Shown: positions 59-16,072, counted from the stretch's first letter. The stretch: DNA of 19,118 nt from a virus (IMGVR_UViG_2897375277_000001:1-19118), one strand, 5' to 3'. A program made the numbers and translations. The notes: a model not told the origin generated them from the letters alone.

Positions 59-703
59 ATGAAATCCGAAACGCTAACCATCCAGCAAATTTTCCAAAAT
101 CAACGACAATATCGTGTTCCATTCTATCAACGCGCCTACGTATGGACGCAACGAAACCAATGGTCAGCTTTGCTGGAGGATATCTTCGAAAAAGCACAGA
201 GCCGACTTTCGGGAACAAAACCAACCCCTCATTTCCTCGGCGCGGTGGTGCTGGAACCTCAACTAAAAAACAGCTTGTTAGGTGTAGATACCATACATAT
301 TATTGACGGCCAGCAACGTTTAACCACTCTTCAATATATTCTGGCATCCATTCGATTATCATTGCGTGCTACAGGCCTTTCTGAATTGGAAGGGTTAGTA
401 TTGACTTGCTTGAAAAATACAAACGAAGCAACGATGAGAAATAAAAAGGTAGAATGCTTCAAACTGTGGCCAACTTTTCGAGACCAACTCATTTTATTCA
501 TAGTCTTAATGTTGATAATATTGACGATCTCCGTAATGTATTTTCTGATAGCTTCACGCAAAATGGTACGTTACGTTAAACATTTCAACCACCCGCCGTC
601 ACTAGAGGCATTATGGTTTTTTACTGAAGCCTTTATAAAATGGATTAAAATAGAAAACCACTCACCACAAGAAAATGCGGTAGCACTAATTGAGGCTGTC
701 TGA
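59..703 (+). CDS. DUF262 (GmrS-like) N-terminal module of a GmrSD-family type IV restriction enzyme; probably the 5' part of one larger gene continuing at 773
   Basis: ATG at 59 with AGGT 5 nt upstream. Translation contains PFYQRAYVW and IIDGQQRLTT, motifs I recognise as DUF262. Same reading frame as ORF 773.., separated by four in-frame stops (701, 740, 746, 770). From about nt 480 the translation turns hydrophobic and junk-like while another frame reads more protein-like. Confidence 0.6.
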   Translation: MKSETLTIQQIFQNQRQYRVPFYQRAYVWTQRNQWSALLEDIFEKAQSRLSGTKPTPHFLGAVVLEPQLKNSLLGVDTIHIIDGQQRLTTLQYILASIRLSLRATGLSELEGLVLTCLKNTNEATMRNKKVECFKLWPTFRDQLILFIVLMLIILTISVMYFLIASRKMVRYVKHFNHPPSLEALWFFTEAFIKWIKIENHSPQENAVALIEAV

Positions 704-772
704 CGGAAATCTGAAACTGGTAAGCATATTTCTCGAAGCTGAAGATGATGCCAAATAATTTTGAAACATTAA

Positions 773-1781
773 ATGGCGAGGAGCGGAACTTCATGCAACG
801 ATCTTATTCGCAACTATATCTTTATGTGCGCTGAGCATGAAAATATTAATGCTATTGAATTATATGAAAATGAGTGGAAGAGCTTTGAAGATAAATACTG
901 GTCGGAAAAGCAACGCCGTGGACGTATTAATAAACCACGCATGGAGTGGCTTGTACATGCGACATTGCAATCAGAAAGGCAGCGTGAAATTGATCTGTCT
1001 CGCCTTTACAATGAGTATCGTGATTATGTAAGTAAGGACTTGCCTTCACAACGAGCAGATCTGCAAGTAAAGCGCCTCAAACAATATGCATCACAATATA
1101 AAGAATTGGTTGGTGGTTTTGGCACAACCCCCATCTCACACTTTGGACATCGCATCGCAGCCTATGATGTGACGACACTTTATCCGCTTGCTTTGTTCAT
1201 TTCGATAGCTAACATCGCCGATGATGAGAAAGCAGCCATGTATAATGATCTTGTCTCCTACGTAGTACGAAGAGCCGTATGTGGCCTGACGCCAAAGAAT
1301 TACAACAATGTATTTATGAATATATTGCGACACTTGTCTAAAACGGAAATTTCCAGTGTTGAGTTACGTAATATCCTCAATAGCTTAAATGGCGAAGCCT
1401 CACGTTGGCCTAGGGACTCAGAATTTCTCAACGCTTGCATCAATGCTCCACTTTATCCTGGCAGGCTCGACGCACCGAAAATGCGCTCAATGTTAACGGA
1501 ACTTGAAAGAGAACTTTGTCGCCAAGTGAAGACAGAAAAGCCTGATGTTCCAAATCTTTCTAATCTCGATATCGATCATCTTATGCCTCAAAGTTGGTAT
1601 TCCTGTTGGCCTCTCGAAAATGGTCATATGGTGACAAATTCAGATGCTACGGTATTGAACCAAATTGTTCTGTCTGGAACCGATCTTACCCCTGAACAGC
1701 TACTGGTAAGGAAACGGCAACAAGCGATAGCTACGTTGGGAAATCTAACTTTGCTTAACCTTAGCGTAAACCGTTCTGTTC
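773..1781 (+). pseudogene. GmrSD-family type IV restriction enzyme, central region plus DUF1524 nuclease domain, interrupted by IS66 after nt 1781
   Basis: Translation contains DIDHLMPQSW and GNLTLLNLSVNRSV, typical of DUF1524. The six-frame ORF continues to 1912, but 1782..1912 is IS66 terminal sequence; the native frame resumes at 4232. Confidence 0.65.
1774..1781. repeat. Left copy of 8-bp target-site duplication TTCTGTTC flanking IS66
   Basis: Identical octamer at 4224..4231 immediately outside the other IS end; 8 bp is the duplication size known for the IS66 family. Confidence 0.85.
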
Positions 1782-1818
1782 GTAAGCGTACAGCGAGGGC
1801 CGTATTGACGGGGATGTG

Positions 1819-3357
1819 TTATTCAGCTGGCAGTGCTATGCGCCACGGAAGCAGTTCGCTGACCCGGTTGACCGGCCAGTCTGCTATGACGCCAAGCACA
1901 TGGCGAAGGTAGCTTTCTGGATCCACGTCATTCAGTTTGCACGTCCCGATCAGGCTGTACAGTAGCGCTCCCCGCTCACCACCATGGTCAGAGCCGAAGA
2001 ACAGGAAGTTTTTACGACCCAGACTGACCGCCCGCAGGGCATTTTCAGCGATGTTGTTGTCGATTTCCACCCAGCCATCGTTCGCATAGTACGTCAGTGC
2101 CGGCCACTGGTTAAGTGCGTACGCGAACGCCTTCGCCAACTCTGAGTGTCGCGACAGGGTCTTCATCTTTTCACGCAACCAGCTTTCCAGGGATTTCAAC
2201 AGCGGTTTCGTTTTTCGCTGACGTTCAGCAAGCCGCTGCTCTGCCGGCATTCCCCTTATATCCGCCTCTATGGCGTACAACTGACCGATCTGCTCCAGGG
2301 CTTCTTCCGTCAGTGCTGACGGGATGCGGACGTGCACATCGTGGATCTTTCGGCGGGCATGAGCCCAGCAGGCAGCTTCCGTTATCCCACCATTGCGATA
2401 CAGCTCGTTGAACCCGGCGTACGCATCCGCTTGCAGCACACCGCTGAAGCAAGCAAGATGAGTCTGCGGATGGATGCCTTTCCTGTCCGGGCTGTAAGCG
2501 AACCACACTGCAGGTGCCAACGCTGACCCGGCATTGCGGTCATCACGAACATACGCCCACAACCGCCCGGTCTTCGTCTTCTTATTACCCGGCAGCAGTA
2601 CCTGGACCGGGGTATCATCGGCATGGAGTTTGCCGTCAGTCATGACATAGCCATGAAGCGCCTCTTCCAGCGGAGACAGCAGCCGGCAGCATGCATCCAC
2701 CCAGCCCGACAGCAGTGAACGGCTCAGCTCCACACCTTGCCGGCCGTATATTTCTGACTGGCGATACAGCGGGGTGTGCTCTGCATACTTCGAGGTCAGC
2801 ACGCGGGCCAGCAGCCCCGGTCCGGCGATACCCCGCTCGATGGGCCGCGAAGGTGCAGGTGCCTGCACGATGGCATCGCACTGAGTACAGGCATGTTTTT
2901 CCCGTACCGTCCGGATAACCCGGAAGGCGCTACGCATCAACTCCAGCTGTTCGGCGGTATCCTCGCCCAGATAGCTCAGTGAACCGCCGCAGTTCGGGCA
3001 GCACGGCGCCGCAGGCAACAGTCGCTTTTCGTCACGGGGTAGTGATTCAGGGAACGGCTTACGGGTGCGGGTCTGACGCAACGGACGCTGTACTGCCGGG
3101 TCATACACCCTACCAGTCAGCGTATCGCTCTCTTTCTGAAGCCGGTTCAGATCGGCTTCCATTTGTGCGATACGGCGGGAGACTTTTTCGGAACGACTGC
3201 CGAAGTTCATCCGGCGGAGTTTATCCAGCTGCGCCTGCAGATGGTCTATTTCGCGCTCCCGGTTGCTCAGCTTTTCCTGCAGGGCGTGGATCAGCGCTTC
3301 CTGTTCGGCCAGGCGCTGTTTCAGCAGGAAGATGTCGTCAGAAGAGATGTCGTTCAT
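1819..3357 (-). CDS. tnpC: IS66-family transposase TnpC
   Basis: 512-aa uninterrupted ORF; translation has the cysteine-rich region (CCPNCGG...CTQCD) and overall character I recognise as IS66 TnpC. Confidence 0.9.
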
Positions 3358-3406
3358 AAGCCCGTATTTTACCGGGCTTATTCTGTGACAACCAGGATAA
3401 AGAGAT

Positions 3407-3754
3407 TTACAGCATGGTCAGGGAGGTCAGCAGCCGCTTAGGCTGTCGCCAGTCGATACCTTCCAGCAGCATCGCCAGCTGCGCCTGCGTAAGGAACACT
3501 TTGCCATCACGGGCTGACGGCCAGGCGAAGCGCCCACGCTCCAGCCGTTTGGTCAGGAGGCACAGCCCGTCACCGGTGGACCACAGCAGTTTAACCTGAC
3601 TGCCGCTGCGGCCCCGGAAAATGAAAACATGGCCGGACATGGGATCGTCTTTCAGCGCCGTCTGTACTTTCGCAGCCAGGCCGTTGAAGCCATTTCTCAT
3701 ATCGGTGATACCGGCAACCAGCCAAATTTTGGTCCCGGAAGGTAACGGGATCAT
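3407..3754 (-). CDS. tnpB: IS66 Orf2 (TnpB)
   Basis: 115-aa ORF directly upstream of tnpC, 4-bp overlap with tnpA, size and position typical of IS66 orf2. Confidence 0.85.
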
Positions 3755-4152
3755 CGCTTCAGTTCCTGTATCAGCAGAGTCAGGAGCTTTTCGCTGACAT
3801 TGCCATTGAAGCGGAGCGTCCCGTGCCGGAACGTTACCTCACAGCTGATACTGAGGGTTTCCGGGTCCTCTGCGAGCGATTCTGGCTGTTCGGCAGCTGC
3901 ATCGAGAGTCACAGGAAGTAGCTGGGGGCTCTCTGAAGAAGGTAATAGCAGCTTTCCCTTGCGCCATTGTTGTCGCCATTTGAACAACAGATTGGCGTTA
4001 ATGCCATTTTCAAGAGCAAGTTTTGAGATGGATATCCCGGGTTCACAGGAGGCAGCAACGAGCTGCTGTTTAAATTCGGGAGGATAATTAGGGCAGCCTT
4101 TTCGCCTGCCGGGAGTCACATTTTTCTGCATATCTGACACTTTGGTTCCCAC
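3751..4152 (-). CDS. tnpA: IS66 Orf1 (TnpA)
   Basis: 133-aa ORF at the 5' end of the IS operon; the true start may be an internal Met. Confidence 0.8.
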   Translation of the reverse strand: MGTKVSDMQKNVTPGRRKGCPNYPPEFKQQLVAASCEPGISISKLALENGINANLLFKWRQQWRKGKLLLPSSESPQLLPVTLDAAAEQPESLAEDPETLSISCEVTFRHGTLRFNGNVSEKLLTLLIQELKR

Positions 4153-4223
4153 TACTTATTTGGTGGACACCACTTTGTCTAATTCGTCAGATTCTGACCA
4201 GACGGTTCAGGCTGTACGCTTAC

Positions 4224-4231
4224 TTCTGTTC
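4224..4231. repeat. Right copy of 8-bp target-site duplication TTCTGTTC flanking IS66
   Basis: Identical to 1774..1781. Confidence 0.85.
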
Positions 4232-4395
4232 AGAATGCTGTATTTCTGAAAAAACGTGATGCTCTCATCGTCCACACCAATCTACGACTGAACATTCCAC
4301 TTATAGTTAAGGATAAATGGGATGAGGATGAAATCCTGGAGCGGGGTAAAAAGTTGGGGGAAATTGCATTGAAAGTATGGCCAAAACACGATTAA
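4232..4395 (+). pseudogene. Displaced 3' fragment of the GmrSD-family gene (54 codons plus TAA stop at 4393..4395)
   Basis: After removing the IS and one duplication copy, codon cgt-tct-gtt-c|ag joins in frame and reads ...GNLTLLNLSVNRSV-QNAVFLKKRDALIVHTNLRLNIPLIVKDKWDEDEILERGKKLGEIALKVWPKHD*. It has no start codon of its own, so it is absent from the ORF track. Confidence 0.7.
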
Positions 4396-4418
4396 TGCAA
4401 TTAATAAAATAATTATAA

Positions 4419-4440
4419 CGGCCTTACATTAGTAAGGCCG
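4419..4440. terminator. Putative bidirectional intrinsic terminator hairpin
   Basis: Perfect 9-bp stem (CGGCCTTAC / GTAAGGCCG) with 4-nt loop ATTA, 24 nt after the restriction-gene stop; AT-rich on both sides (T-rich when read on the minus strand). Confidence 0.4.
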
Positions 4441-4490
4441 CTACTCACTATTAAATCCTTTAATTTGCATCAAGAACAGCAGTGTCAGCC

Positions 4491-4619
4491 CTAGGTCTCG
4501 GACTTTGTACCGCTTATCTTGTCTTCAAAAATCAGCTCGCATCCTGCACAGTTCAGCGCATTACGTTGTAGATCTGTGTTCTGGTCATTTATTGATACGC
4601 GTACATAGCCAATAAGCAT
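4491..4619 (-). pseudogene. Remnant of a Pin/Gin/Hin-family serine DNA invertase gene (first 42 codons only)
   Basis: Minus-strand translation from ATG at 4619: MLIGYVRVSINDQNTDLQRNALNCAGCELIFEDKISGTKSET*. This matches the N-terminus of Pin/Gin invertases as I recall them, including the catalytic-serine motif YVRVS. Only about 95 bp separate its end from the restriction-gene stop, so the remaining roughly 150 codons cannot be present. Confidence 0.75.
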
Positions 4620-4645
4620 AGTGGCTCCCTCTGACAAAAGCAGGA

Positions 4646-4981
4646 ATGATGCCATTTGCTCGTTATTTCTGCATTTTCATAAACGTTGGTTTGGGAGAAG
4701 GTGCTAACTGGGTTATGTTACCTGGAGGAATGATAATTCAGCGTGTTTATCTTGGATTTCCTGTCGGCACCAATGTAAGACACATAACTTTCCCCCGGTC
4801 GTTTACAACAACGAACTATTCCATCTCAATTAACTGGAATGATATCGGTACTGTAACAACTGAAACACAATCGCCAGCAAATGTGGCGGTTGTTCATCAA
4901 ACAAAATCATTAACAGGGGCCAGCATCTGGCAGGCAGGTCCCGGGGGATTTAATGTGGACATTATAGCGGTGGGGTATTGA
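4646..4981 (+). CDS. Alternative tail-fiber C-terminal cassette, silent in the current orientation
   Basis: The crossover site 4674..4699 lies within codons 10-18; it is followed directly by a Tfa gene and converges on the expressed fiber/Tfa pair, the G-segment-like layout. No fiber N-terminal constant region is attached. Confidence 0.55.
4674..4699. repeat. Left crossover site of invertible segment (12-2-12 invertase site, core TT)
   Basis: TTTTCATAAACG-TT-GGTTTGGGAGAA. Its inner half is the exact reverse complement of 6510..6521; the overall form resembles hix/gix-type sites. Confidence 0.6.
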
Positions 4982-4982
4982 T

Positions 4983-5411
4983 ATGTACGTATGGAGCGCT
5001 AAAGCAAATGGCTTTTTCCCCATATCGGAGAAAGAAAAATTTGAGGCATCAGGTCTGTGGCCTGATGATGGTGTAATAGTCAGTGAGGAAGAACATAAAA
5101 AGTTATTTACGGATATTCTACCAGGAAAACAGATTGGAACACTGAATGGAAAACCAGCACTGATAGATATTCCTCAGCCGACCAAAAAGGAATTAATAGC
5201 TATTGCTGAAGTTAAAAAATCCCAATTACGGGAAAAAGCTGACAGTGAAATATCCTGGCGTCAGGATGCTGTTGATGCTGATATCGCAACTGATGAAGAA
5301 ACTTCAACTCTCACCAAATGGAAGAAATACCGTGTGCTGCTGATGCGTGTTGATACTTCAACAGCACCCGATATTGAATGGCCTACGCCTCCGGCAGTTC
5401 AGGCCAGATGA
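4983..5411 (+). CDS. Tail fiber assembly protein (Tfa), alternative copy
   Basis: 142-aa ORF ending ...[23 protein letters not shown], the conserved Tfa C-terminal pattern. Confidence 0.8.
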
Positions 5412-5988
5412 CATCCGGCGTGGTGCTGGTATCTGTTACCGTCACCGCGTCAATGTAATCCAGCACGGCGTTAAGTCGGGTTGTTTCTGCCTGCGTCAGC
5501 TTCCGCCCGGCCTGTAATTTCAGTTGAATCAGACTGATGGAAGCCATTGCAGCATCAATCAGCGACTGGCGCTGTGCTTCTGCCGCGTCTACTGCGGCAC
5601 TATGCTGTGCCTCAGTATCTGTCACCCATTTCTCACCATCCCATTTATCGTATGGCGTTAACGGGACGATAGTGGTTGTATTTTCAGGGTAATCACCCGG
5701 AGCTGTGATTTCTTTTGATTCTCCCGTTTCGGTGTTATAGACAACTTCACCGCGATGGTCTGGCACATATTCCCATGAGTTTAAATCTGCCGAACGGCAG
5801 ATTGCATAACCAACCTTATGTGTGCCAGGAGCATCTAAACAGGAATATGCAGGGATACCGACACCCACAGCAAGATATTCAGTTGATGCAGAAATATACT
5901 CCCGTGTCTCACTGTCATAGTTATAAACGGTAATCTCTCCTGCCTTTGTGGCAATAAATTTATTATTTAAGATGGCGTTATACATCAT
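5383..5988 (-). CDS. Tail fiber assembly protein (Tfa), expressed copy
   Basis: 201-aa ORF ending ...[18 protein letters not shown]; start overlaps the fiber stop (ATGA); 3' end overlaps the convergent Tfa by 29 bp. Confidence 0.8.
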
Positions 5989-6812
5989 GCAGCCCTCACA
6001 ATGTAATTAAATGAAATATTACGTGGGCGTGTCTCTGCTGCACCGACAATACTGGTACTCAACCCCGTTGCCGTTCGTTTGTTATTTTTATTTCCTTCAA
6101 TCAGACAGTTGTAATCATCATTACCAATTAACGAATTGGTGGCATCAATACTGTCCGGGGACAAGGCATTAGTTGTGGAACTTAAAGTCAGCATCTCGTC
6201 TGAACTTGGAAGATTTTTTAATGGTGTTTCATTGCGTGAAATACCCGCGTAAAAAAAGGACTCATGCCTGTGAGCTTCAAAAGAGTCATTCTGAAGACTT
6301 AGCAAGGCTCGCCCCGCATCCACTCCACGTCCATCATCCCAGCCACGAATAAATTCACCGCGTAAATCAGGCAATTTATTGGTCGGGTAAGCCTTTGCCA
6401 GTTCCGGGTATTCTTCAGCAGAAAAAGCCGCACCATTGCATTTCAGCCAGCCTGTTGGCGGAGTGGCTGAAGGCCACGGAACAGGCACCCCAACCGGTAA
6501 TGCAGAGCCTTCTCCCAAACCAAGGTTTTCGAGAGCTGTTTTCACCGTGCCATCCGATTTGATATCGCCAAACGGATTCTTGCGGCTTAACAGCAGCGCA
6601 CGAAGCGCGGTAAGCAACTGGTCGTGCCGCGCCTTCTCCAGGCTGGCACCGGAGGCCTCCACCACGCTGCAGAGTTCTTCCTGCAACATGTCAAAGTAGT
6701 CATCATCCAGATCGGTGGCAGGCGTGCCTGTCTGGGGGTTACCACGGGTAAAACCGTTCTTACCCGGGCCGAACTTATCCTTCTGCGCGGTTTTCGTGTC
6801 TATACGATGCAT
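5985..6812 (-). CDS. Tail fiber protein (constant N-terminus plus variable C-terminus currently in the expressed orientation)
   Basis: 275-aa ORF with GGAG 7 nt before the ATG; the C-terminal region has [19 protein letters not shown], which resembles the receptor-binding region of Mu S / P2 H-type fibers. The crossover site 6510..6535 lies inside the gene. Confidence 0.75.
6510..6535. repeat. Right crossover site of invertible segment (12-2-12, core AA)
   Basis: TTCTCCCAAACC-AA-GGTTTTCGAGAG, which closely resembles the hixL sequence as I recall it (TTCTTGAAAACCAAGGTTTTTGATAA). Confidence 0.6.
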
Positions 6813-6815
6813 GGA

Positions 6816-7400
6816 TTACTCCGGATATTTAAAAATTACGTAGGTATGCGACGGGCAGAGTTTGTTAAGCACACATTCGACGACGGTGTCGCCCCAGACA
6901 CGCAGCGCGGAATCACAGGGATCGCCACATGTCATCCAGGTGGTGTTGGTGGCGGCTGGCATGTTGACCTGCCAGTAATACCGCCATTCCGGCGCATTCA
7001 CCGCGTCAGTACAGGCAGATGAGCAGGTGAAAGTGCTTTTATCGTATCGCGTGATGGTGGCATCCGGTCTGCCCAGGGCAGCAAGCTGTGCAAGGTAAAA
7101 ATCCTCATTGATGCCGCCCGCCAGATTAACCTTCGCATCCAGCCGTTGCTGACGCTGGCGAAGGGTCTGCGTTCCCGCCGGAATACATTCATCCGGCAGG
7201 CCGCACAGACGCTCCCAGCGGTTTATCAGTTCAGTGGTGGTGCGCGGATCCAGCTCCCGCATCAGGGCATCCGCACGCTGATGAACGCGGGTTAATGACG
7301 GTGCCGCACCGGCAATCGCCGGATCGCTGACTGACCACGCCGGACCGGGCGGCAACAGTGCCGACAACAGACGGATATAATCATCGTTTGTCACGTCCAT
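6816..7400 (-). CDS. YmfQ/DUF2313-family tail protein (Mu gp48-like)
   Basis: 194-aa ORF between the baseplate J-like gene and the tail fiber, overlapping its upstream neighbour; composition and position fit. Confidence 0.55.
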
Positions 7401-8449
7401 GAAATCGTCCCCAGAACTGCCAGCTCATTTTTTGCAATGGAGATATTGTCCGCCGGGGCAAGCAACTGATGGCTGTATTCCCCGTTCGCACCGGAAATCG
7501 CTTCACTGATACGTGACACCTTCAGTTCTCCCTGCGGATAACCATCACGCAGCAGGAACGAACGCAACTCCGCGGTGATGGCGGCTCGTATTTCCGGTGT
7601 ATCCGGCGTCACACGGATATGAAAATCCACTTTATGCGCCACCGGCCTGAATACATACAAATCAGAGCCTGCCACCGGGGCCAGTGGCTCGATATGTTGT
7701 CTTGCCGCCGTTTCCGTTGATTCTTCCGGAATGGGATTAATCAGGTCACTGCTGGCAATCATCACACCGACAGTTCCCGTTCCCATCCAGTGACGGTATG
7801 TCCATGCGCGGGTAATGCCGGGCACTTCTTTAGCCCAGACGACATAGTCCCCGTCAGCCCCGCCCTGAGGCGTCCAGTAATACCGCTCAATGACGCGGGC
7901 GCGCCACGTTTCCAGCTCTTCAGTATCAAATCCACCTGTCAGGGTATCTGCCACGCCGGAAGACGGCAGACCATTCACCGGCGTGACCAGGATTAATGAC
8001 GTACCGTCGTCAGCGTTACCGACCGCGCCTGCACTTGAGCAGGCGATCGGCACGCGCAGGACACCACCGGAGCTGGTTGCATCGGCAGTTGCCGTGTACT
8101 GAACCAGGTCATCGCGCTGAATAACACTCCCGGCGGTCACCTTCAGGCCATCGCTGACACCTTCCCAGCGCATATACCCGCTGGCAGTCGTGGCCCCCTT
8201 GCGCGGACACCGTTTCATCGCAGCATGTCGCGCCAGCCAGGACTCATCGCACAGGTCAGGCAGCATGTTCATTGCCAGATAATCGATGTACCCGTAAACC
8301 GTATGCAGCGCCGCCGCATACACCTTTGCCCGCACGTCTTCATCCATGCGCCGGAGCGTGTCGCTGACGTCCAGCCTGGCGAATAAATCGTTACGGAGCA
8401 TACTGATATTTTCTGCCAGCGTCGGGCGCTGAAATTCACTGTCCGCCAT
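7391..8449 (-). CDS. Baseplate J-like protein (Mu gp47 / P2 gpJ-like)
   Basis: 352-aa ORF in the expected position, 14-bp overlap with the upstream gene. Confidence 0.7.
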
Positions 8450-10488: not shown

Positions 10489-11812
10489 TGCACTGGCACC
10501 TTCAGAGGGATCACCGGCACAAAGCCGGGATGCGTAATGGCATTACGCCGGATAATGTCCCCGTCACGCGCCGCGTTATCAAACCAGGTCGCCGCCAGCA
10601 CCAGCGCGGGTAAAACCTCATCCGGCGTGCGCTGAATGATCCGTGCAGACTGTTCAAGGCGCGTGTTGATATCCGCATTCAGATCTGCTTTCACCCGGCG
10701 CAGCGCCAGAAACAGCGCATCACTGGTTGTACGGGACAACTCCTTATCAATTGCCGTATTCAGTGTGTCGCGAATGTCAGTCAGTTCTTCCCACGTTGGC
10801 AGGTCAACCGTGCTTTTCACCGCCGGTGCATTGTTCAGTGCCGGATGCGTGACGGAAGGCCAGCCAGTGCTCTGCGCGGGTGTTGTTGCCTGCCCCACTG
10901 CGGCATTCTGCATCACCGCGGAAGTTGTTGGCGCAGGCAATCGGGTGACGGCATACGCCGCTTCGCTGATTGCGGTCGTACGAAGGATGCTGGCAACCAC
11001 GTTACGCTGCTGTGTCGCCGTGGCGGTGGTTTTACTGTCCGTTTTCCAGACGCCGCGCGGTTGCAGATCGCTGCCAAGGCTGACACCGGAAAGCGTTTTG
11101 ATCATGGTGACCAGGTCGCTGGCGTTACCATAAAGGCGTTTCCCGGTACGCCACATTTTCTGCACCTGCTCAACGAAATTTTTGCCTGACGATGGCGGCG
11201 GCAGAAGTACCGAGATATCCCCTGCAACAGCCTGGCGGCATCCGATACGGCAGAATCCACCACTTTCATCGCATCAGAAACATACCCAAGCATTGTGCCG
11301 GCATTACCGACGACGTCGTTCTGCACAAAATCTGCCACGCCATCGATACTGAAACTACTGAAACTGTCACTGATGCAGTCATCCAGTGCAGAACAGGATG
11401 ACATCAGCGTCTGCGCCGTCGCCGCACCTGATGTGGGGTAAGAGAGTTCTCCCGCTTCGACAAACTTCAGGTCAAAGCGGACAATACGCCCTTCACTCTT
11501 CGATGTGCTGACCCGAACCTCTCCGTCAACACAGACTTTCAGCTCACCGTAAGTCGGATGGACAAGCGTGCCAGGACCGGGTTTATTCAGCGCGTCAATC
11601 AGGCGATCGCGCTGGTCAAAGCAGTCATCTCCCACCACATAAGCCGTGATGGACGGGCGGAAAGTGATTTTCCCCAGGTCTTCGGTATAGGGTTTGTCGC
11701 GGTTCGGGTATTCGTGCGTTTCCACACGACGACCGGTTCCCGTACTTTCTTCTTCAACCTTAAACGGCACACCGCGAAATGACGCGTCCTGAAGTCTGTC
11801 TTTCCACGTCAT
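10485..11812 (-). CDS. Mu N (gp43)-like DNA circulation protein, with an apparent frameshift near 11219..11222
   Basis: Likely start is ATG at 11812..11810 (MTWKDRLQDASFRGVPFKV) with GGAG 6 nt upstream. The frame of ORF 11102..11854 turns junk-like after ...SDAARLLQG, and the neighbouring frame reads on as DISVLLPPPSSGKNFVEQVQKMWRTGK...; the switch is at a CCCC run (plus strand). Confidence 0.55.
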
Positions 11813-11827
11813 ATAAACTCCGTACAT

Positions 11828-11849
11828 AAAAAATCCCACCGGAGTGGGA
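11828..11849 (-). terminator. Putative intrinsic terminator/attenuator between tape measure and N-like genes
   Basis: Minus strand reads TCCCAC-TCCG-GTGGGA followed by TTTTTT, 24 nt after the tape-measure stop. Confidence 0.45.
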
Positions 11850-11872
11850 CTCATTAACAGATTAATTTTTCA

Positions 11873-13696
11873 TTACCTGCCAAAGCACGTATAGCCAACA
11901 TCATGGCTGACATCAAAACCGCTGGATCGCGTTTCCATAACCCGCATCCCCGGAGGCGAATTCACAAAAGAGACCTTGATCTCACCATCAACTTTTGGCG
12001 CAGAAGCTTTGTTAATCATGAAGGGATTCGAGCCTGTGGCACCGGAGGCGTTGTTTGACTGAGCCGGATCCACCGCCGGATAAGGTGTGTATCCCGCGCC
12101 GGTATTCCCGTCCCATAAGCATCATAAGCACCCGCGCCCCACTGCGCAGAGTTAATGCATCGACCGTGTCACCGGAACTGTCGGTAAACCACTCAATAAT
12201 TGGCTTCAGCTTGTCCCACATATCCTGAAACCACTTAACAACCGGTCCCCAGTTATTGATCACCATCCCCAGCGGCGACCAGGCAAAAACCTTCTTAAGA
12301 AGTTCCCAGCCAGTCTCAAAATAAGGACCAATGGTTTCCAGAGTTTCTTGAAATAAGGTCCGACAACATCCCAATTAGTGATAATTAATCCCGCAGCCAG
12401 GGCTATCGCCGTCGCAATCATGCCAATCGGCGTCATCGACATGATCCTGCTGACAATACTGATGGCACCGCCAACGCCCATCAATCCCAGTTTCAGAATC
12501 GCAAGACCGGCAGCAAGCCCGACGACACCGCGAATAACCCGGGGATTTTCATCCGCAAACTTCGTGAATTTTTCCCCTAACTCCCCCAGCCATTGCGTGA
12601 TATTTTTGGCGTCACCAGAAAATGCGCCGCCAATAGCCGCAAGGCCGTTAGTTGCGGTCCCCGTCATTGCCTCCCACAGGTTGGACAGCGTACCAAGCTG
12701 GGCCTGAACACGTTTATTCAGGCTGGCCTGTTTATTCATCTTCTGCTGGATCTGATCGTAGCCATCCTTTCCTTTATCGATTAGTGCATTGACCACCTGA
12801 AGGGTTTCGGCATCATCACCAAATATTGCCTTAAGTACACCTGTTCGCTTAACGTCGGTCAGTTTTCGCAGCTTTGCCAGTTGCCTGAACATGTTATCAA
12901 GACCGCCAAAACTTCCTTTGCCGTCAGTAAAATCGAGCTGTACCCCGAGTTTCTGGCGGGCCATGACTTTATTGACGTCCCTGATTTTCTTAACGCTTAA
13001 TCCGGACTGGATAACTTTTCGCAGGGCATTACCTGCCGACTCCCGTTCATCCCCATCTGATCCATCATAACGCTGATGGGGGCAAGGCTCTGTGCAGCCT
13101 GAAGACCGTCCTTGTTCACCATCTTCAGAACAGAACTGGTTTTAGTGAAGAAGGACAACATGTTGTATCGTCAACGCCCAGATAAAACGCCTTCTGGATA
13201 GTGTCGAACAGCCCCATCATGTCTTCTGACGCCGTTCCGGTAGCATCCTGCATCTTTGCAGCAAACTCAGCAGCCGCTTCCGGTGTTTTTTCAGTTGTAC
13301 CGCAAGATAAGCTGTCGCTTTACCCACACCGCCAAGAATGTTTTCTGCGGGATCCCTGACGCACCAGCATCTGCATCATGTTCTGGAAATCAGCCGTTGT
13401 ACGGGTAGCTGGTTACCCAGGCCAATAGCCAGTTTATTGATGTCCTGAAAGCGCTTTCCGACCTCACCGTTCGCATCCATCATGGCAACTTTCAGCCCGT
13501 GGCGGCGTTTTCCTGATCGGCATAAGATTTCAGGAAAGCGTCAGACCCGCAGCCAGTCCGCCACCAAGCGCCAGCCCACCCTGTGACGCTTCTTCCGCCT
13601 GGCGTTTAAATCCCGGATTTTCTTTTGCATTTTCGACAGCGCGGGAGAAAGCCTGTCGACACCGGTGATCAACGCCTTAAGCTCAAATTCAGCCAT
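11873..13696 (-). CDS. Tail tape measure protein, with multiple apparent frameshifts
   Basis: Start ATG 13696..13694 (MAEFELKALITGVDRLSPALSKMQKK) with GGAG upstream. ORFs 12260..12964, 12012..12374 and 11873..12073 are successive pieces of one protein in different frames; 12965..13696 has no ORF of 60 aa or more in any frame yet reads as tape-measure sequence across frame switches. Confidence 0.6.
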
Positions 13697-13835
13697 GTGT
13701 GCGTTTCTCCTGCTCTATCCTGTTTGCCTGACTGACCAGCAAGGAATTTCACTGATCGGCATATTCAGCAATTCGAAGGGATTAATGCGCCAGTAGCTGC
13801 GCAGTCAAAGAAGCGATCAGTGAGGTATTCAGCCG

Positions 13836-14102
13836 TCAGGCCTGGAGGAAAAAACCGGCCACAAGCCACGCCGCTGCATTCAGGTCTGCCGGAGACATCT
13901 GGTCGACAGAGCTTTGCGGCACTTTCGCCAGCCGCACAATGTATTTCGACACCACATGCGCCAGAAGTCTGACGGACTCATCCTGATTCATCTGGTAGGG
14001 ATACCCAGCTCGCGGACATCCTTCCGGTGGTTCATCAAACTCCAGTACGGAGAGTGTCTCGCCATGAGCAATAATCGGTTTCTTTAACTCAAGCTCTTTC
14101 AT
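13836..14102 (-). CDS. Tail assembly chaperone (Mu gp41 / P2 gpE-like)
   Basis: ATG at 14102..14100 (MKELELKKPIIAHGETLSVLEFDEP...); lies between tube and tape measure; carries a slippery heptamer 2 codons before its stop. Confidence 0.55.
   Translation of the reverse strand: MKELELKKPIIAHGETLSVLEFDEPPEGCPRAGYPYQMNQDESVRLLAHVVSKYIVRLAKVPQSSVDQMSPADLNAAAWLVAGFFLQA
13848..13854 (-). other. Candidate programmed -1 ribosomal frameshift site T-TTT-TTC in the chaperone gene
   Basis: Minus-strand zero-frame codons GGT-TTT-TTC immediately before ...LQA-stop; the -1 frame stays open for 29 more codons to a TGA at 13765..13767. Confidence 0.4.
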
Positions 14103-14454
14103 TACTGGTAATCCCTTCTTCACCGTGGAACTCAAGATCAACCGTGCCTTCTTCGGCATTATGGTTCGCTTCGCCGTGCAGCCAGGCAGACGACAGTACA
14201 TAGACCTGACCGTTCGCCAGCTCGGCAGTGATTGTCATCTCATCAGACGAGGTGATTTTGCTCACCGGAAAATTCTTCGCACCTTGAAGGTCCCTTTGAC
14301 ATAAGGCGCACGGTGAGTTTCCTTGCGGTCCACTGAACCGTCCAGGCCGATGATGTCATCATTGACCGTCCTGTTCATGGCACCTCAATGCCGCCGGTCA
14401 GCGATAGCTGCTGACCGTCAATTTTGAAATAACAGGTTCCCCGATACGGGCCAT
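14089..14454 (-). CDS. Tail tube protein, with apparent frameshifts
   Basis: Start ATG overlaps the sheath stop (TAATG at 14457..14452). Translation pieces MARIGEP..., FKIDGQQLSLTGGIEV and TVNDDIIGLDGSVDRKETHRAPYVKGTFKV fall in different frames; one switch is at a CCCC run at 14439..14442. Confidence 0.45.
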
Positions 14455-16072
14455 TATGCGGACTCCTCTGAATACTGAAGACGGAACTGGTTAACCACGG
14501 CAAAGACACGCAACTGGTTAACATAGTCAGGCGGGAACAGCGTGTTCAGGCGGTTCGGATCGCTGGCATCACGCTCCACAACCAGGTACTGCTTAAAAAG
14601 TTCGTAGTTTTCCACGATCCCGCACGCTCAAGCTGACGGTAGGTTGCCAGCAGTTCCCTTTGATCACCGCCTGGGTGACAATCGCCTGACCGGACCAAAG
14701 CGGTACCGTCGCTGGCAAGCTTGTGACGCCCGTACTTACTGGTAATGACGGATTTCAGTTTGCGCAGTACATACGCACTGGTATGCAGCGTCTCGCTGTC
14801 GAGGTAGCTGTTATCCGCAACCCCGTAAGCGTTTTTCCTGTACGTGGTGACATCACGCTGAATGCGCAGTACCCGCTTTCGACATACGCCGTTGCCACGC
14901 CATGAGACAGCAGGGTCTGTTGTTCGGTCATCGTGAACCGTTTCCCCTTCGGCGCAGGCAGCATACCCACCAGCTCACCGTCTGCGTGGACGTGCCGGAT
15001 CGTTGCGGATAAACACCGCTGCGCGGGCGGTACGGCTTGCGCCAGCTCGTCGGCAGCGTCTGGTCTCTTTTCGTACCCGCCAGGGTAATGTGCTGCTGGT
15101 TAAACTGGTCACCTGCGTCACCAGTTCTGACAGCGTGCCGATCTTTGCCGTATACACATGACCATACAGCTGACGCGCATAGCTCCAGCGACCGCTGGTA
15201 TCGTTCATCTCGGTCACCAGCGTGTTAACGGAGCCGTGTCGTTGAACGGCAGGCCGATATAATCAAACGGCTCATCCGCCATTGCAGCCACCGCGCCGGT
15301 GAGAACAGGAGAACCCGTTCCGGCGGTACCCGTCGCCACGGCAATCTGTACGCCGCTGGCAGCACTTCGCCCCACCAAGCCGTAGTAATTGAGGCTGACA
15401 GGAATTTCATTCCGCAAAGCCCTTATGACGCGCGGTCAGTGTGACCACGCCAGCGAAGATGAAGCTGTAAACGCAGAGTCGGAACGGCATTGATGGCATC
15501 CTGGATACTGCCGGCAATCGTCGCGACGTTATCGCCATTGGTCACCGGTGCCTGCACGCGGGTACGTCCACATAAACATTCACCGTGCGGTTTCGGTTGC
15601 CGCCCGGTCACCGTCAGCGTAACCGTTGCCGCCGCGCCTGTGGCTTCCGGAACGGCAATCACATACAGCTCGCAAACGGGTCAGTCTGGCGATAAGCCTC
15701 GACCATACGCGCCAGCTGACTTCCCGCACCACAAATCTGGAGTGCATAGTCTGCCGACGGCATCAGTACCAGACTGTTGGCAACAATCTCTGCACCGTTA
15801 TTGCATGACCAATCAGCAGCGATGCTCCGCTGTCCTGTGCAGTATTCGCCGCCTGGTTATCCATTTCCGCATAAACAACGGAACCAGCGTATTCGACGGA
15901 ATGGTGTTAAAGCTTATCGTCATCGGTATTCACCTTTTTATTCACGCGCCGGATATCACCCGCTGCTTCACGGCGCAGCCAGTAGTTGTTCTCGTCAACA
16001 TTTCGCCCTTCGCGGCAAAGGTCGCCGCGGCAGGGTCAGGAACTGACCGCCCTTTAACAGGTTGACAAACAT
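14455..16072 (-). CDS. Tail sheath protein, with multiple apparent frameshifts
   Basis: Start ATG 16072..16070 with GAGGA upstream. The translation across frames reads ISFNTIPSNTLVPLF-YAEMDN...NTAQDSGASLLIGHAIT... and MTEMNDTSGRWSYARQLYGHVYTAKIGTLSELV..., which looks like a contractile sheath. Only ORFs of 80 aa or less survive in this 1.6-kb stretch. Confidence 0.55.

Follow-up and report, generated by a model that had tools for sequence, protein, structure and literature searches.

What occupies the far end of an e14-like prophage, between its DNA invertase gene and the chromosome, and is the occupant interchangeable? The question is raised by a viral sequence of 19,118 nucleotides (IMGVR_UViG_2897375277_000001:1-19118; hereafter, the window, meaning the whole stretch analysed), in which a remnant of a Pin-type invertase gene lies beside a type IV restriction gene of the GmrSD family. 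An initial annotation proposed that this position parallels the pin-mcrA arrangement of prophage e14 in Escherichia coli K-12 and marks a variable locus where different anti-phage nucleases are exchanged. Our analysis indicates that positions 59-4699 are very probably the terminal accessory slot of a prophage of the e14/SfV family, that the interval from pin to the attachment site (att) behaves as a defence hotspot in this family, and that the GmrSD gene held there is disrupted in the window. The layout, the homology, the diversity of the cargo and the interruption by an insertion sequence (IS) can all be read directly from the sequences compared. Following the restriction module along the window, against its closest IS-free relative, the prophage of E. 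coli H22 (locus L001; 99.3-99.7% identical), we find:

59..1781, plus strand: 5′ part of the GmrSD type IV restriction gene, codons 1 to ~575 (Pfam GmrSD_N and GmrSD_C; alignment with the H22 allele).
1774..1781: left copy, TTCTGTTC, of an 8-bp target-site duplication (single-copy in the uninterrupted H22 allele).
1782..4223, minus strand: IS66-family insertion sequence of 2442 bp (Pfam DDE_Tnp_IS66, TnpB_IS66 and HTH_Tnp_1; junction sequences).
1819-3357, minus strand: tnpC of the IS66-family element.
3407-3754, minus strand: tnpB of the same element.
3751-4152, minus strand: tnpA of the same element.
4224..4231: right copy, TTCTGTTC, of the target-site duplication (junction sequence).
4232..4395, plus strand: 3′ part of the GmrSD gene, its last 54 codons, with the TAA stop at 4393-4395 (collinear with H22).
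4420..4439: GC-rich hairpin, GGCCTTAC ... GTAAGGCC, likely a terminator, between the convergent GmrSD gene and truncated pin (pin′) (read from the sequence).
4497..4619, minus strand: remnant of a Pin/PinE serine invertase gene, codons 1-41 only (Pfam Resolvase; translation; homology to K-12 pinE).

The family assignment made in the initial annotation, a type IV nuclease of the DUF262/DUF1524 kind and different from McrA, stands. A Pfam scan of the open reading frames (ORFs) of the window matched GmrSD_N (DUF262, PF03235) to the ORF at 59-703 (E 6e-22) and GmrSD_C (DUF1524, PF07510) to the one at 773-1912 (E 2e-10); the nucleoside triphosphate (NTP)-binding motif DGQQR is readable as IIDGQQRLTTL, and the nuclease motif DIDHLMPQS...N (here DIDHLMPQS...EN), the D-H...N of a His-Me finger, is present. 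Alignment with the uninterrupted H22 allele (629 aa; L001 8060-9949; 99.3% identical to the window copy) joins the two ORFs into a single gene. That intact allele, with DGQQR at residue 83 and D507/H508/N522, matches PADLOC mREase_IV from end to end (E=0, 629/629 positions); PDLC03655 and other GmrSD-like models (Orf5, HEC-06 and SspE) are among its matches. The McrA model PDLC03656, which McrA itself matches, is not among the 25 PADLOC families listed for the GmrSD allele; the window gene shares the slot of McrA and belongs to a different family.

Length and catalytic residues are the same as in Eco94GmrSD (629 aa, catalytic D507-H508-N522, 93% identical to UTI89 GmrSD; He et al. 2015, PMC4437046), which, together with the PADLOC mREase_IV score and the genomic context, suggests that the window gene is an inactivated ortholog of this characterised enzyme. 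The likeness, and with it the suggested orthology, extends to UTI89 GmrSD and CT596 GmrS-GmrD: 629 aa, identical D507/H508/N522 numbering, DUF262 plus DUF1524, and carriage by a prophage. Eco94GmrSD and CT596 GmrSD are known for NTP-stimulated cleavage of DNA containing 5-hydroxymethylcytosine (5hmC) or its glucosylated form (glc-5hmC) and for restriction of T4 ip1 mutants, T4 delta-ip1 being restricted >10^6-fold by Eco94GmrSD (PMC4437046). An intact 629-aa enzyme of the window type, encoded by a single gene, would accordingly pair an N-terminal DUF262 NTP-binding domain (DGQQR) with a C-terminal His-Me-finger nuclease (D507, H508, N522) and would cleave the glucosyl-hmC or hmC DNA of incoming T-even phages, protecting the lysogen. 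The location after fibre genes has already been remarked on for single strains, Eco94GmrSD being described as sitting 'immediately downstream of' the tail-fibre genes of an SfII-like prophage (PMC4437046).

Unlike Eco94GmrSD, the window copy is interrupted by the IS66 element and carries indels; it lacks an intact coding sequence and is a disrupted member of its family. The element shows everything expected of IS66, namely, tnpA-tnpB-tnpC, terminal inverted repeats (GTAAGCGTACAGC/GCTGTACGCTTAC) and an 8-bp target duplication, and at 1782-4223 it cuts off the last 54 codons, a lesion predicted to leave the enzyme dead or crippled. The initial annotation of a defence nuclease at this slot was right about the identity of the gene, but the copy at hand has been knocked out. 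Could GmrSD and pin′ have become neighbours only in this strain, through rearrangement or deletion mediated by IS66? The element does lie between most of GmrSD and the pin remnant, and pin is truncated. However, the clean 8-bp duplication and the exact restoration of the H22 allele when the element is removed imply a simple insertion, so that the neighbourhood was not made by the IS; from 4224 onward the window is collinear with H22 at 99.7% identity. Moreover, the same pin′-GmrSD junction is shared by 295 complete genomes, the listed examples being IS-free, and pin is truncated at codon 41 in IS-free H22 too, where it is annotated as 'recombinase, missing C-terminus'. With IS-free relatives refuting it, an origin by IS rearrangement is barely credible, and we reject it.

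The frameshifts in the 5′ part of the gene call for a different explanation. Several 1-2-base indels at ~486-800 separate it from the intact allele, and over the window as a whole, comparison with H22 shows 36 one-base indels, most of them deletions, in two clusters (23-800 and 11219-14702), against only 9 substitutions over 12.4 kb; these indels fragment GmrSD as well as the tail tape-measure/circularisation genes. Because indels far exceed substitutions, the pattern indicates assembly error, and the small indels are probably artefacts of long-read assembly, not real pseudogenes. We have therefore downgraded genuine decay of GmrSD by frameshifting and take the IS as the secure inactivating lesion.

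Insertions into this gene recur elsewhere. In avian pathogenic E. coli (APEC) IMT5155 (L108 5745-8160), a second, independent IS66-family element interrupts GmrSD 25 bp upstream of the window site, with CTTTGCTT as its target duplication, and in DE17 and VTB96815v an IS66-family element also lies within the region matching the window. Repeated IS66 insertion into GmrSD may reflect a preference for this target or, since over-expressed Eco94GmrSD is reported to be toxic (PMC4437046), selection against the enzyme.

The comparison with e14 depends on the fibre side of the junction, which comprises the following:

4646..6812: invertible tail-fibre cassette (Pfam Gp53-like_C, Caudo_TAP (twice) and Collar; homology to e14 tfaE/stf).
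4646-4981, plus strand: alternative fibre tip, in the cassette.
4681..4701, with partner 6508-6528: crossover-site inverted repeat of the invertible fibre segment (21-nt inverted repeat).
4983-5411, plus strand: tfa′, in the cassette.
5383-5988, minus strand: tfa, in the cassette.
5985-6812, minus strand: stf, in the cassette.
6816..7400, minus strand: ymfQ, a Mu gp48-like baseplate gene and the anchor of our survey (96% DNA identity to K-12 ymfQ; YmfQ in the H22 annotation).

These features place the window in the e14/SfV family, whose members combine a baseplate of Mu type with a Pin invertase and an invertible segment of tail-fibre genes. Mu-type baseplate genes (gp45, gp46, gp47/J, gp48/YmfQ), also listed in the annotation of the collinear H22 region, are followed by e14-homologous stf/tfa and by an invertible segment whose inverted crossover sites lie beside a Pin-family invertase gene, here only a remnant. 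The invertible segment and both of its crossover sites are intact (21 nt, 95% complementary, arms 1806 nt apart). The remnant starts at a minus-strand ATG at 4619 and runs for 41 Pin codons (MLIGYVRVSINDQNTDLQRNALNCAGCELIFEDKISGTKSE) before a T and a stop (translation of 4470-4625), this Pin/Gin-type N-terminus forming residues 14-54 of a 54-codon minus-strand ORF. With Pin reduced to 41 codons, any fibre switching would need a Pin-family invertase supplied in trans; trans action of PinQ on e14 has been reported, and PinQ-driven inversion of the e14 fibre segment blocks T2 adsorption (PMC12529663).

The e14 layout given in the initial annotation proved accurate: RefSeq gives for MG1655 the order ymfQ, stfP, tfaP, tfaE, stfE, pinE(+), mcrA(+), prophage end and the icdC pseudogene. 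DNA identity between the window and e14 is 94% across pin′ and the crossover site, 90% across tfaE, the inverted orientation of which is expected of an invertible segment, and 96% across stf/ymfQ/jayE (window 6508-8178 against K-12 stfP/ymfQ/jayE). Homology extends to pin codon 41 and stops at window position 4498, nucleotide 122 of pinE; by sequence comparison, the end of the pin remnant is the junction with the GmrSD cargo module. What lies beyond is best seen in H22, with the order icdC, 850 bp, GmrSD(+), pin′(-) and fibre genes. GmrSD is flanked there by the pin remnant and the icdC attachment-site duplicate; to judge from this alignment, it occupies the e14 position of mcrA inside the att-bounded prophage, so the proposed parallel with pin-mcrA is borne out. 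The 233 bp between mcrA and icdC in K-12 have no counterpart in H22 and, hence, the entire pin-to-att interval differs.

In both prophages, then, a gene for a modification-dependent type IV nuclease active on T-even-type DNA is the last one between the Pin invertase and icdC. The differences are equally clear. McrA and GmrSD are unrelated apart from the His-Me/HNH nuclease core; pin and GmrSD converge, while e14 mcrA points the same way as pin; and, relative to e14 (pinE-mcrA-attR), pin is cut to 41 codons in the window and the interval, including the att-proximal sequence, is replaced. On the other side of icdC in H22 (L001 1-7212) lies a lambdoid prophage with Red genes, an excisionase gene and an integrase gene with an internal stop, so that two tandem prophages reside at icd in this strain.

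How variable is the slot across the family? Scanning IMG/VR with the window YmfQ yielded 80 loci with YmfQ 98-99% identical; pin was placed by tblastn, and ORFs beyond it were called and clustered, with representatives annotated by PADLOC, Pfam and NCBIfam. The DNA beyond pin was readable in 33 of the 80 loci, where the first gene or genes are as follows:

6 of 33: PD-T4-3, a 257-aa GIY-YIG protein (PADLOC E 2e-140).
2 of 33: McrA, then icdC.
2 of 33: GmrSD, with 44-49 codons of pin left, similar to the window.
2 of 33: a 178-aa protein, then a 917-aa Ppl / TrlF family protein (E 5e-157).
1 of 33: a 936-aa SIR2-domain protein.
1 of 33: RnlA and RnlB, with pin cut to 96 codons.
5 of 33: a 231-aa DUF4145 protein, then DinI, integrase and dusA.
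8 of 33: DinI alone, mostly with a 56%-identical invertase.
6 of 33: another or unknown first gene.

Aligning the window to e14 and tabulating the gene beyond the invertase, as the initial annotation had suggested, thus gave at least 12 first-gene clusters in the 33 loci, despite a conserved pin and a YmfQ at least 98% identical; conserved flanks around changing contents are what defines a hotspot. Second genes in the interval add a Dcm-type methylase with an EcoRII-type endonuclease, a type IIG/ISP restriction-modification (RM) system, AbiTii and a CapH/CapP-like pair, in combination with the first: GmrSD occurs with or without AbiTii or the type IIG RM system, and PD-T4-3 with or without the EcoRII-like one. 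A defence gene recognised by PADLOC or otherwise well known stands first in 14 of the 33 loci, several of which hold a second, and at least eight unrelated systems occupy the slot. The roster of McrA, GmrSD, PD-T4-3, Ppl, SIR2, RnlAB, AbiTii, EcoRII-type RM and type IIG RM suggests enrichment in defence. The expectation of a variable locus is therefore upheld and that of nucleases alone is not, given the SIR2 protein, the Ppl ATPase and the RnlAB toxin-antitoxin pair.

Complete genomes extend the picture. Queries spanning the junctions, run against 5426 complete E. coli genomes at a query coverage of at least 80%, found pinE-PD-T4-3 in 565 genomes, pinE-mcrA in 329, pin′-GmrSD-stf′ in 295, pin-DUF4145 in 34 and pin-DinI of one lineage in 9, as well as pin′-RnlAB in up to 72, pin-SIR2 in 14 and pin-Ppl in 13, the last three being counts for which cargo alone could attain 80% coverage and for which the listed top matches include the recombinase. 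PD-T4-3 follows pinE in O157:H7 and strain 120, and in UMNK88 pinE is followed by the SIR2 protein and then by the chromosomal pao genes. In one Pin cluster, pin is followed by DinI and by an SRAP-domain gene, putatively the chromosomal yedK.

These numbers bear on whether the interval, lying at the end of a prophage, is simply a generic accessory ('moron') site without particular bias towards anti-phage defence. DinI alone and the DUF4145 protein account for 8 and 5 of the 33 loci, AraC-type regulators, IS elements and unknown genes are found among the remainder, and the corresponding place in Shigella relatives is taken by O-antigen gtr genes. Yet defence genes come first in 14 loci and represent at least eight unrelated systems, defence junctions outnumber those with DinI and DUF4145 by ~1290 to 43 in complete genomes, and O-antigen modification by gtr itself blocks superinfection; a slot without bias seems distinctly unlikely. 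Consistent occupation by non-defence genes, which would have spoken against the initial annotation, was not seen, although a sizeable minority of loci contain DinI only.

Where, exactly, does the cargo begin and end? In K-12 and H22, cargo is enclosed by the icd/icdC duplication marking the prophage boundaries, and the pin′-GmrSD junction is found at two chromosomal sites, icd (H22) and next to ssrA (APEC IMT5155, and L045, with a transfer-messenger RNA (tmRNA) gene identified by ARAGORN); being identical at both, it indicates that the GmrSD module travels with the fibre end of the prophage. In most lineages, the stop codon of pin is followed by a conserved element, which opens with a hairpin of 12-bp stem (AACCGTAGCACG-N13-CGTGCTACGGTT) and continues over ~100-185 nt (for example, L107 4743-4930; also L041, L093, L094 and L007). 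Its fold has a minimum free energy of -45 kcal/mol (z = -4.3), and it gives a sub-threshold Rfam match to the Shigella small RNA CssrB (36.7 bits, where the gathering score is 76). PD-T4-3 is inserted directly 3′ of this hairpin, and a second hairpin copy beyond the cargo brackets it in L033 (13450, 17630), L060 (13310, 14339) and L073 (13034, 17213). SIR2, Ppl and two unknown genes come after the element. The DUF4145 gene separates the pin stop from the hairpin, of which no copy adjoins pin in that lineage. Divergence begins at the stop codon of pin in the McrA lineage and within pin in those of GmrSD and RnlAB; as the window junction is of this last, pin-internal kind, the element is missing from the window. 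Breakpoints coincide with the element, an observation and not a proof of mechanism.

A further observation concerns ssrA. A degenerate 3′ end of this (tmRNA) gene, with its flank, lies 165-265 bp upstream of GmrSD, even in the icd-located prophage of H22, a hint that an ssrA attachment site once terminated the GmrSD arm. The copies are:

H22 (L001) 7795-7894: degenerate ssrA 3′ end.
L074 15090-15240: degenerate ssrA 3′ end.
L045 15090-15240 and 16880-17020: degenerate ssrA 3′ ends.

Such sequences are one argument for regarding the cargo as neighbouring chromosomal islands, or remnants of tandem elements at ssrA/icd, that were fused to the fibre end by deletions. Besides the att-like copies upstream of GmrSD in H22, L074 and L045, the cargo of L045, L033, L060 and L073 has a tmRNA gene or pieces of ssrA at its flanks, the second hairpin copy lies beyond it in L033 and L073, pin is truncated in the GmrSD and RnlAB lineages, and the tmRNA locus is a known multi-element hotspot (PMC10121019). 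Against fusion by deletion stand the position of the cargo inside the icd/icdC duplication in K-12 and H22, the identity of the pin′-GmrSD junction at icd and ssrA, and the occurrence of PD-T4-3, SIR2 and Ppl directly after an intact pin and the conserved 3′ element at different chromosomal sites. We consider such an origin unlikely overall; it is compatible with a hotspot and is a minor rival that concerns how cargo was acquired, not the nature of the slot. The ssrA remnants and second post-pin copies fit capture from tandem relatives or neighbours at busy integration sites.

We propose, for the pin-to-att hotspot, a scheme in which conserved flanks enclose interchangeable cargo, with the invertase gene on one side of the slot and the junction of prophage and chromosome on the other, where e14 has mcrA. 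Related or tandem prophages would exchange cargo through recombination, illegitimate or homologous, with breakpoints inside pin, at its stop codon or at the conserved hairpin just after, and the cargo would be selected for excluding competing, largely T-even, phages. Phage resistance conferred by the cloned cargo is published for McrA, GmrSD, RnlAB, PD-T4-3 and Ppl. Many occupants have links to T-even phages: McrA acts on hmC DNA and GmrSD on glc-hmC DNA, PD-T4-3 was selected on T4, and RnlAB acts on T4 dmd mutants; Lit, at the opposite end of K-12 e14, likewise acts on T4.

Several points weigh against the reading as a phage-borne defence hotspot. Neither the sampled loci nor the genomes were dereplicated, so that the counts mix clonal abundance with independent events. 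About a quarter of the sampled loci hold DinI only, and the DUF4145 protein, in 5 loci, carries no defence annotation. The defence roles of the cargo are predicted from profile matches and the literature, and the mechanism of exchange is inferred. Finally, cargo with degenerate ssrA att ends could have been captured from neighbouring islands and not by phage-phage exchange.

Phage-borne defence hotspots as such are well established. Those of P2 (old/tin) and P4 (psu-int) were described by Rousset 2022 (PMC9122126); Vassallo 2022 added a second P2 hotspot, containing fun, and found some new systems in Mu-like prophages (PMC9519451); at the P2 Z/fun hotspot, which adjoins tail-fibre genes, tail-fibre swaps, a DNA invertase and defence-like cargo are mixed (preprint 10.1101/2024.10.15.618418); and Hochhauser 2023 catalogued chromosomal hotspots, including the tmRNA locus, and mentioned 'dedicated positions' in prophages (PMC10121019). 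The e14/SfV slot resembles P2-like old/tin and Z/fun and P4 psu-int in its conserved phage flanks and interchangeable, mostly single-operon defence cargo, but belongs to another phage family, of e14/SfV type with a Mu-like baseplate, and lies at the prophage end by att instead of internally. The e14 morphogenesis module is common to SfV, SfI and SfII, with gtrABC invariably placed between the tail genes and attP, directly upstream of the latter (SfI paper, PMC3636060). Lysogenic-conversion genes between tail genes and attP in SfI, SfII, SfV and SfX thus occupy the same structural slot, with the difference that gtrABC alters the O-antigen receptor and does not attack incoming DNA. The right end of phage Mu offers another parallel: its baseplate and fibre genes lead to the invertase gene gin and then to com/mom, an accessory gene at the terminus with a role in restriction, although Mom modifies DNA as a counter-defence and is not a defence nuclease.

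In the portions of text searched, the P2/P4 hotspot papers do not mention e14, nor do the cited hotspot, tmRNA-locus and SfI papers single out the interval between pin and att of e14 as a hotspot of defence genes; a full-text search pairing e14-like prophages with defence returned no paper, which, with incomplete literature coverage, is weak evidence. The present finding adds to this class a specific, well-populated hotspot, the e14/SfV pin-att interval. With the concept established and the window gene known and inactivated, the gain is incremental, not conceptual. The locus is easy to anchor, between YmfQ or pin and the attachment site, in a prophage family that is very common in E. coli, and could be mined for new single-gene defence systems. 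It also ties the classic anti-T-even exclusion genes McrA, GmrSD, RnlAB and PD-T4-3 to one interchangeable position, and its cargo may help account for differences among strains in sensitivity to T-even phages.

A more far-reaching version, which we regard as possible but doubtful, is that the pin-to-att interval is an uncatalogued hotspot whose cassettes are delimited by the post-pin hairpin as a preferred recombination breakpoint. Its unknown occupants would then be new anti-phage genes, probably directed against T-even phages. Five cargo proteins, none with a PADLOC or NCBIfam match, are candidates for such genes:

L067 13427-13960, minus strand: 178-aa protein, next to Ppl.
L077 13671-14294, minus strand: 208-aa protein.
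L093 13736-14521, minus strand: 262-aa protein with a weak HNH_5 match.
L094 3934-4968, minus strand: 345-aa protein.
L029 13483-14175, minus strand: 231-aa DUF4145 protein.

Other searches defined the reach of the survey. Looking up the window Tfa protein gave only two contigs, both under 2 kb, and the K-12 ymfQ-to-bluR query matched mostly chromosomal flanks and little of the cargo. A cross-species YmfQ scan gave 29 loci; outside Escherichia/Shigella, nearly all have no invertase downstream of ymfQ. One Pin cluster, P0024, was rejected as a member of the e14 family, as it consists of P2-like E. coli prophages, whose invertase gene has an internal position, flanked by the fibre genes and the sheath gene. 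Finally, two E. coli assemblies (L019 and L024, 1-4567) have a P2-like tail-fibre/invertase remnant directly next to genes for flagellin and a Hin-like resolvase (66% identical to PinE), an arrangement reminiscent of a module for flagellar phase variation beside phage DNA for fibre switching.

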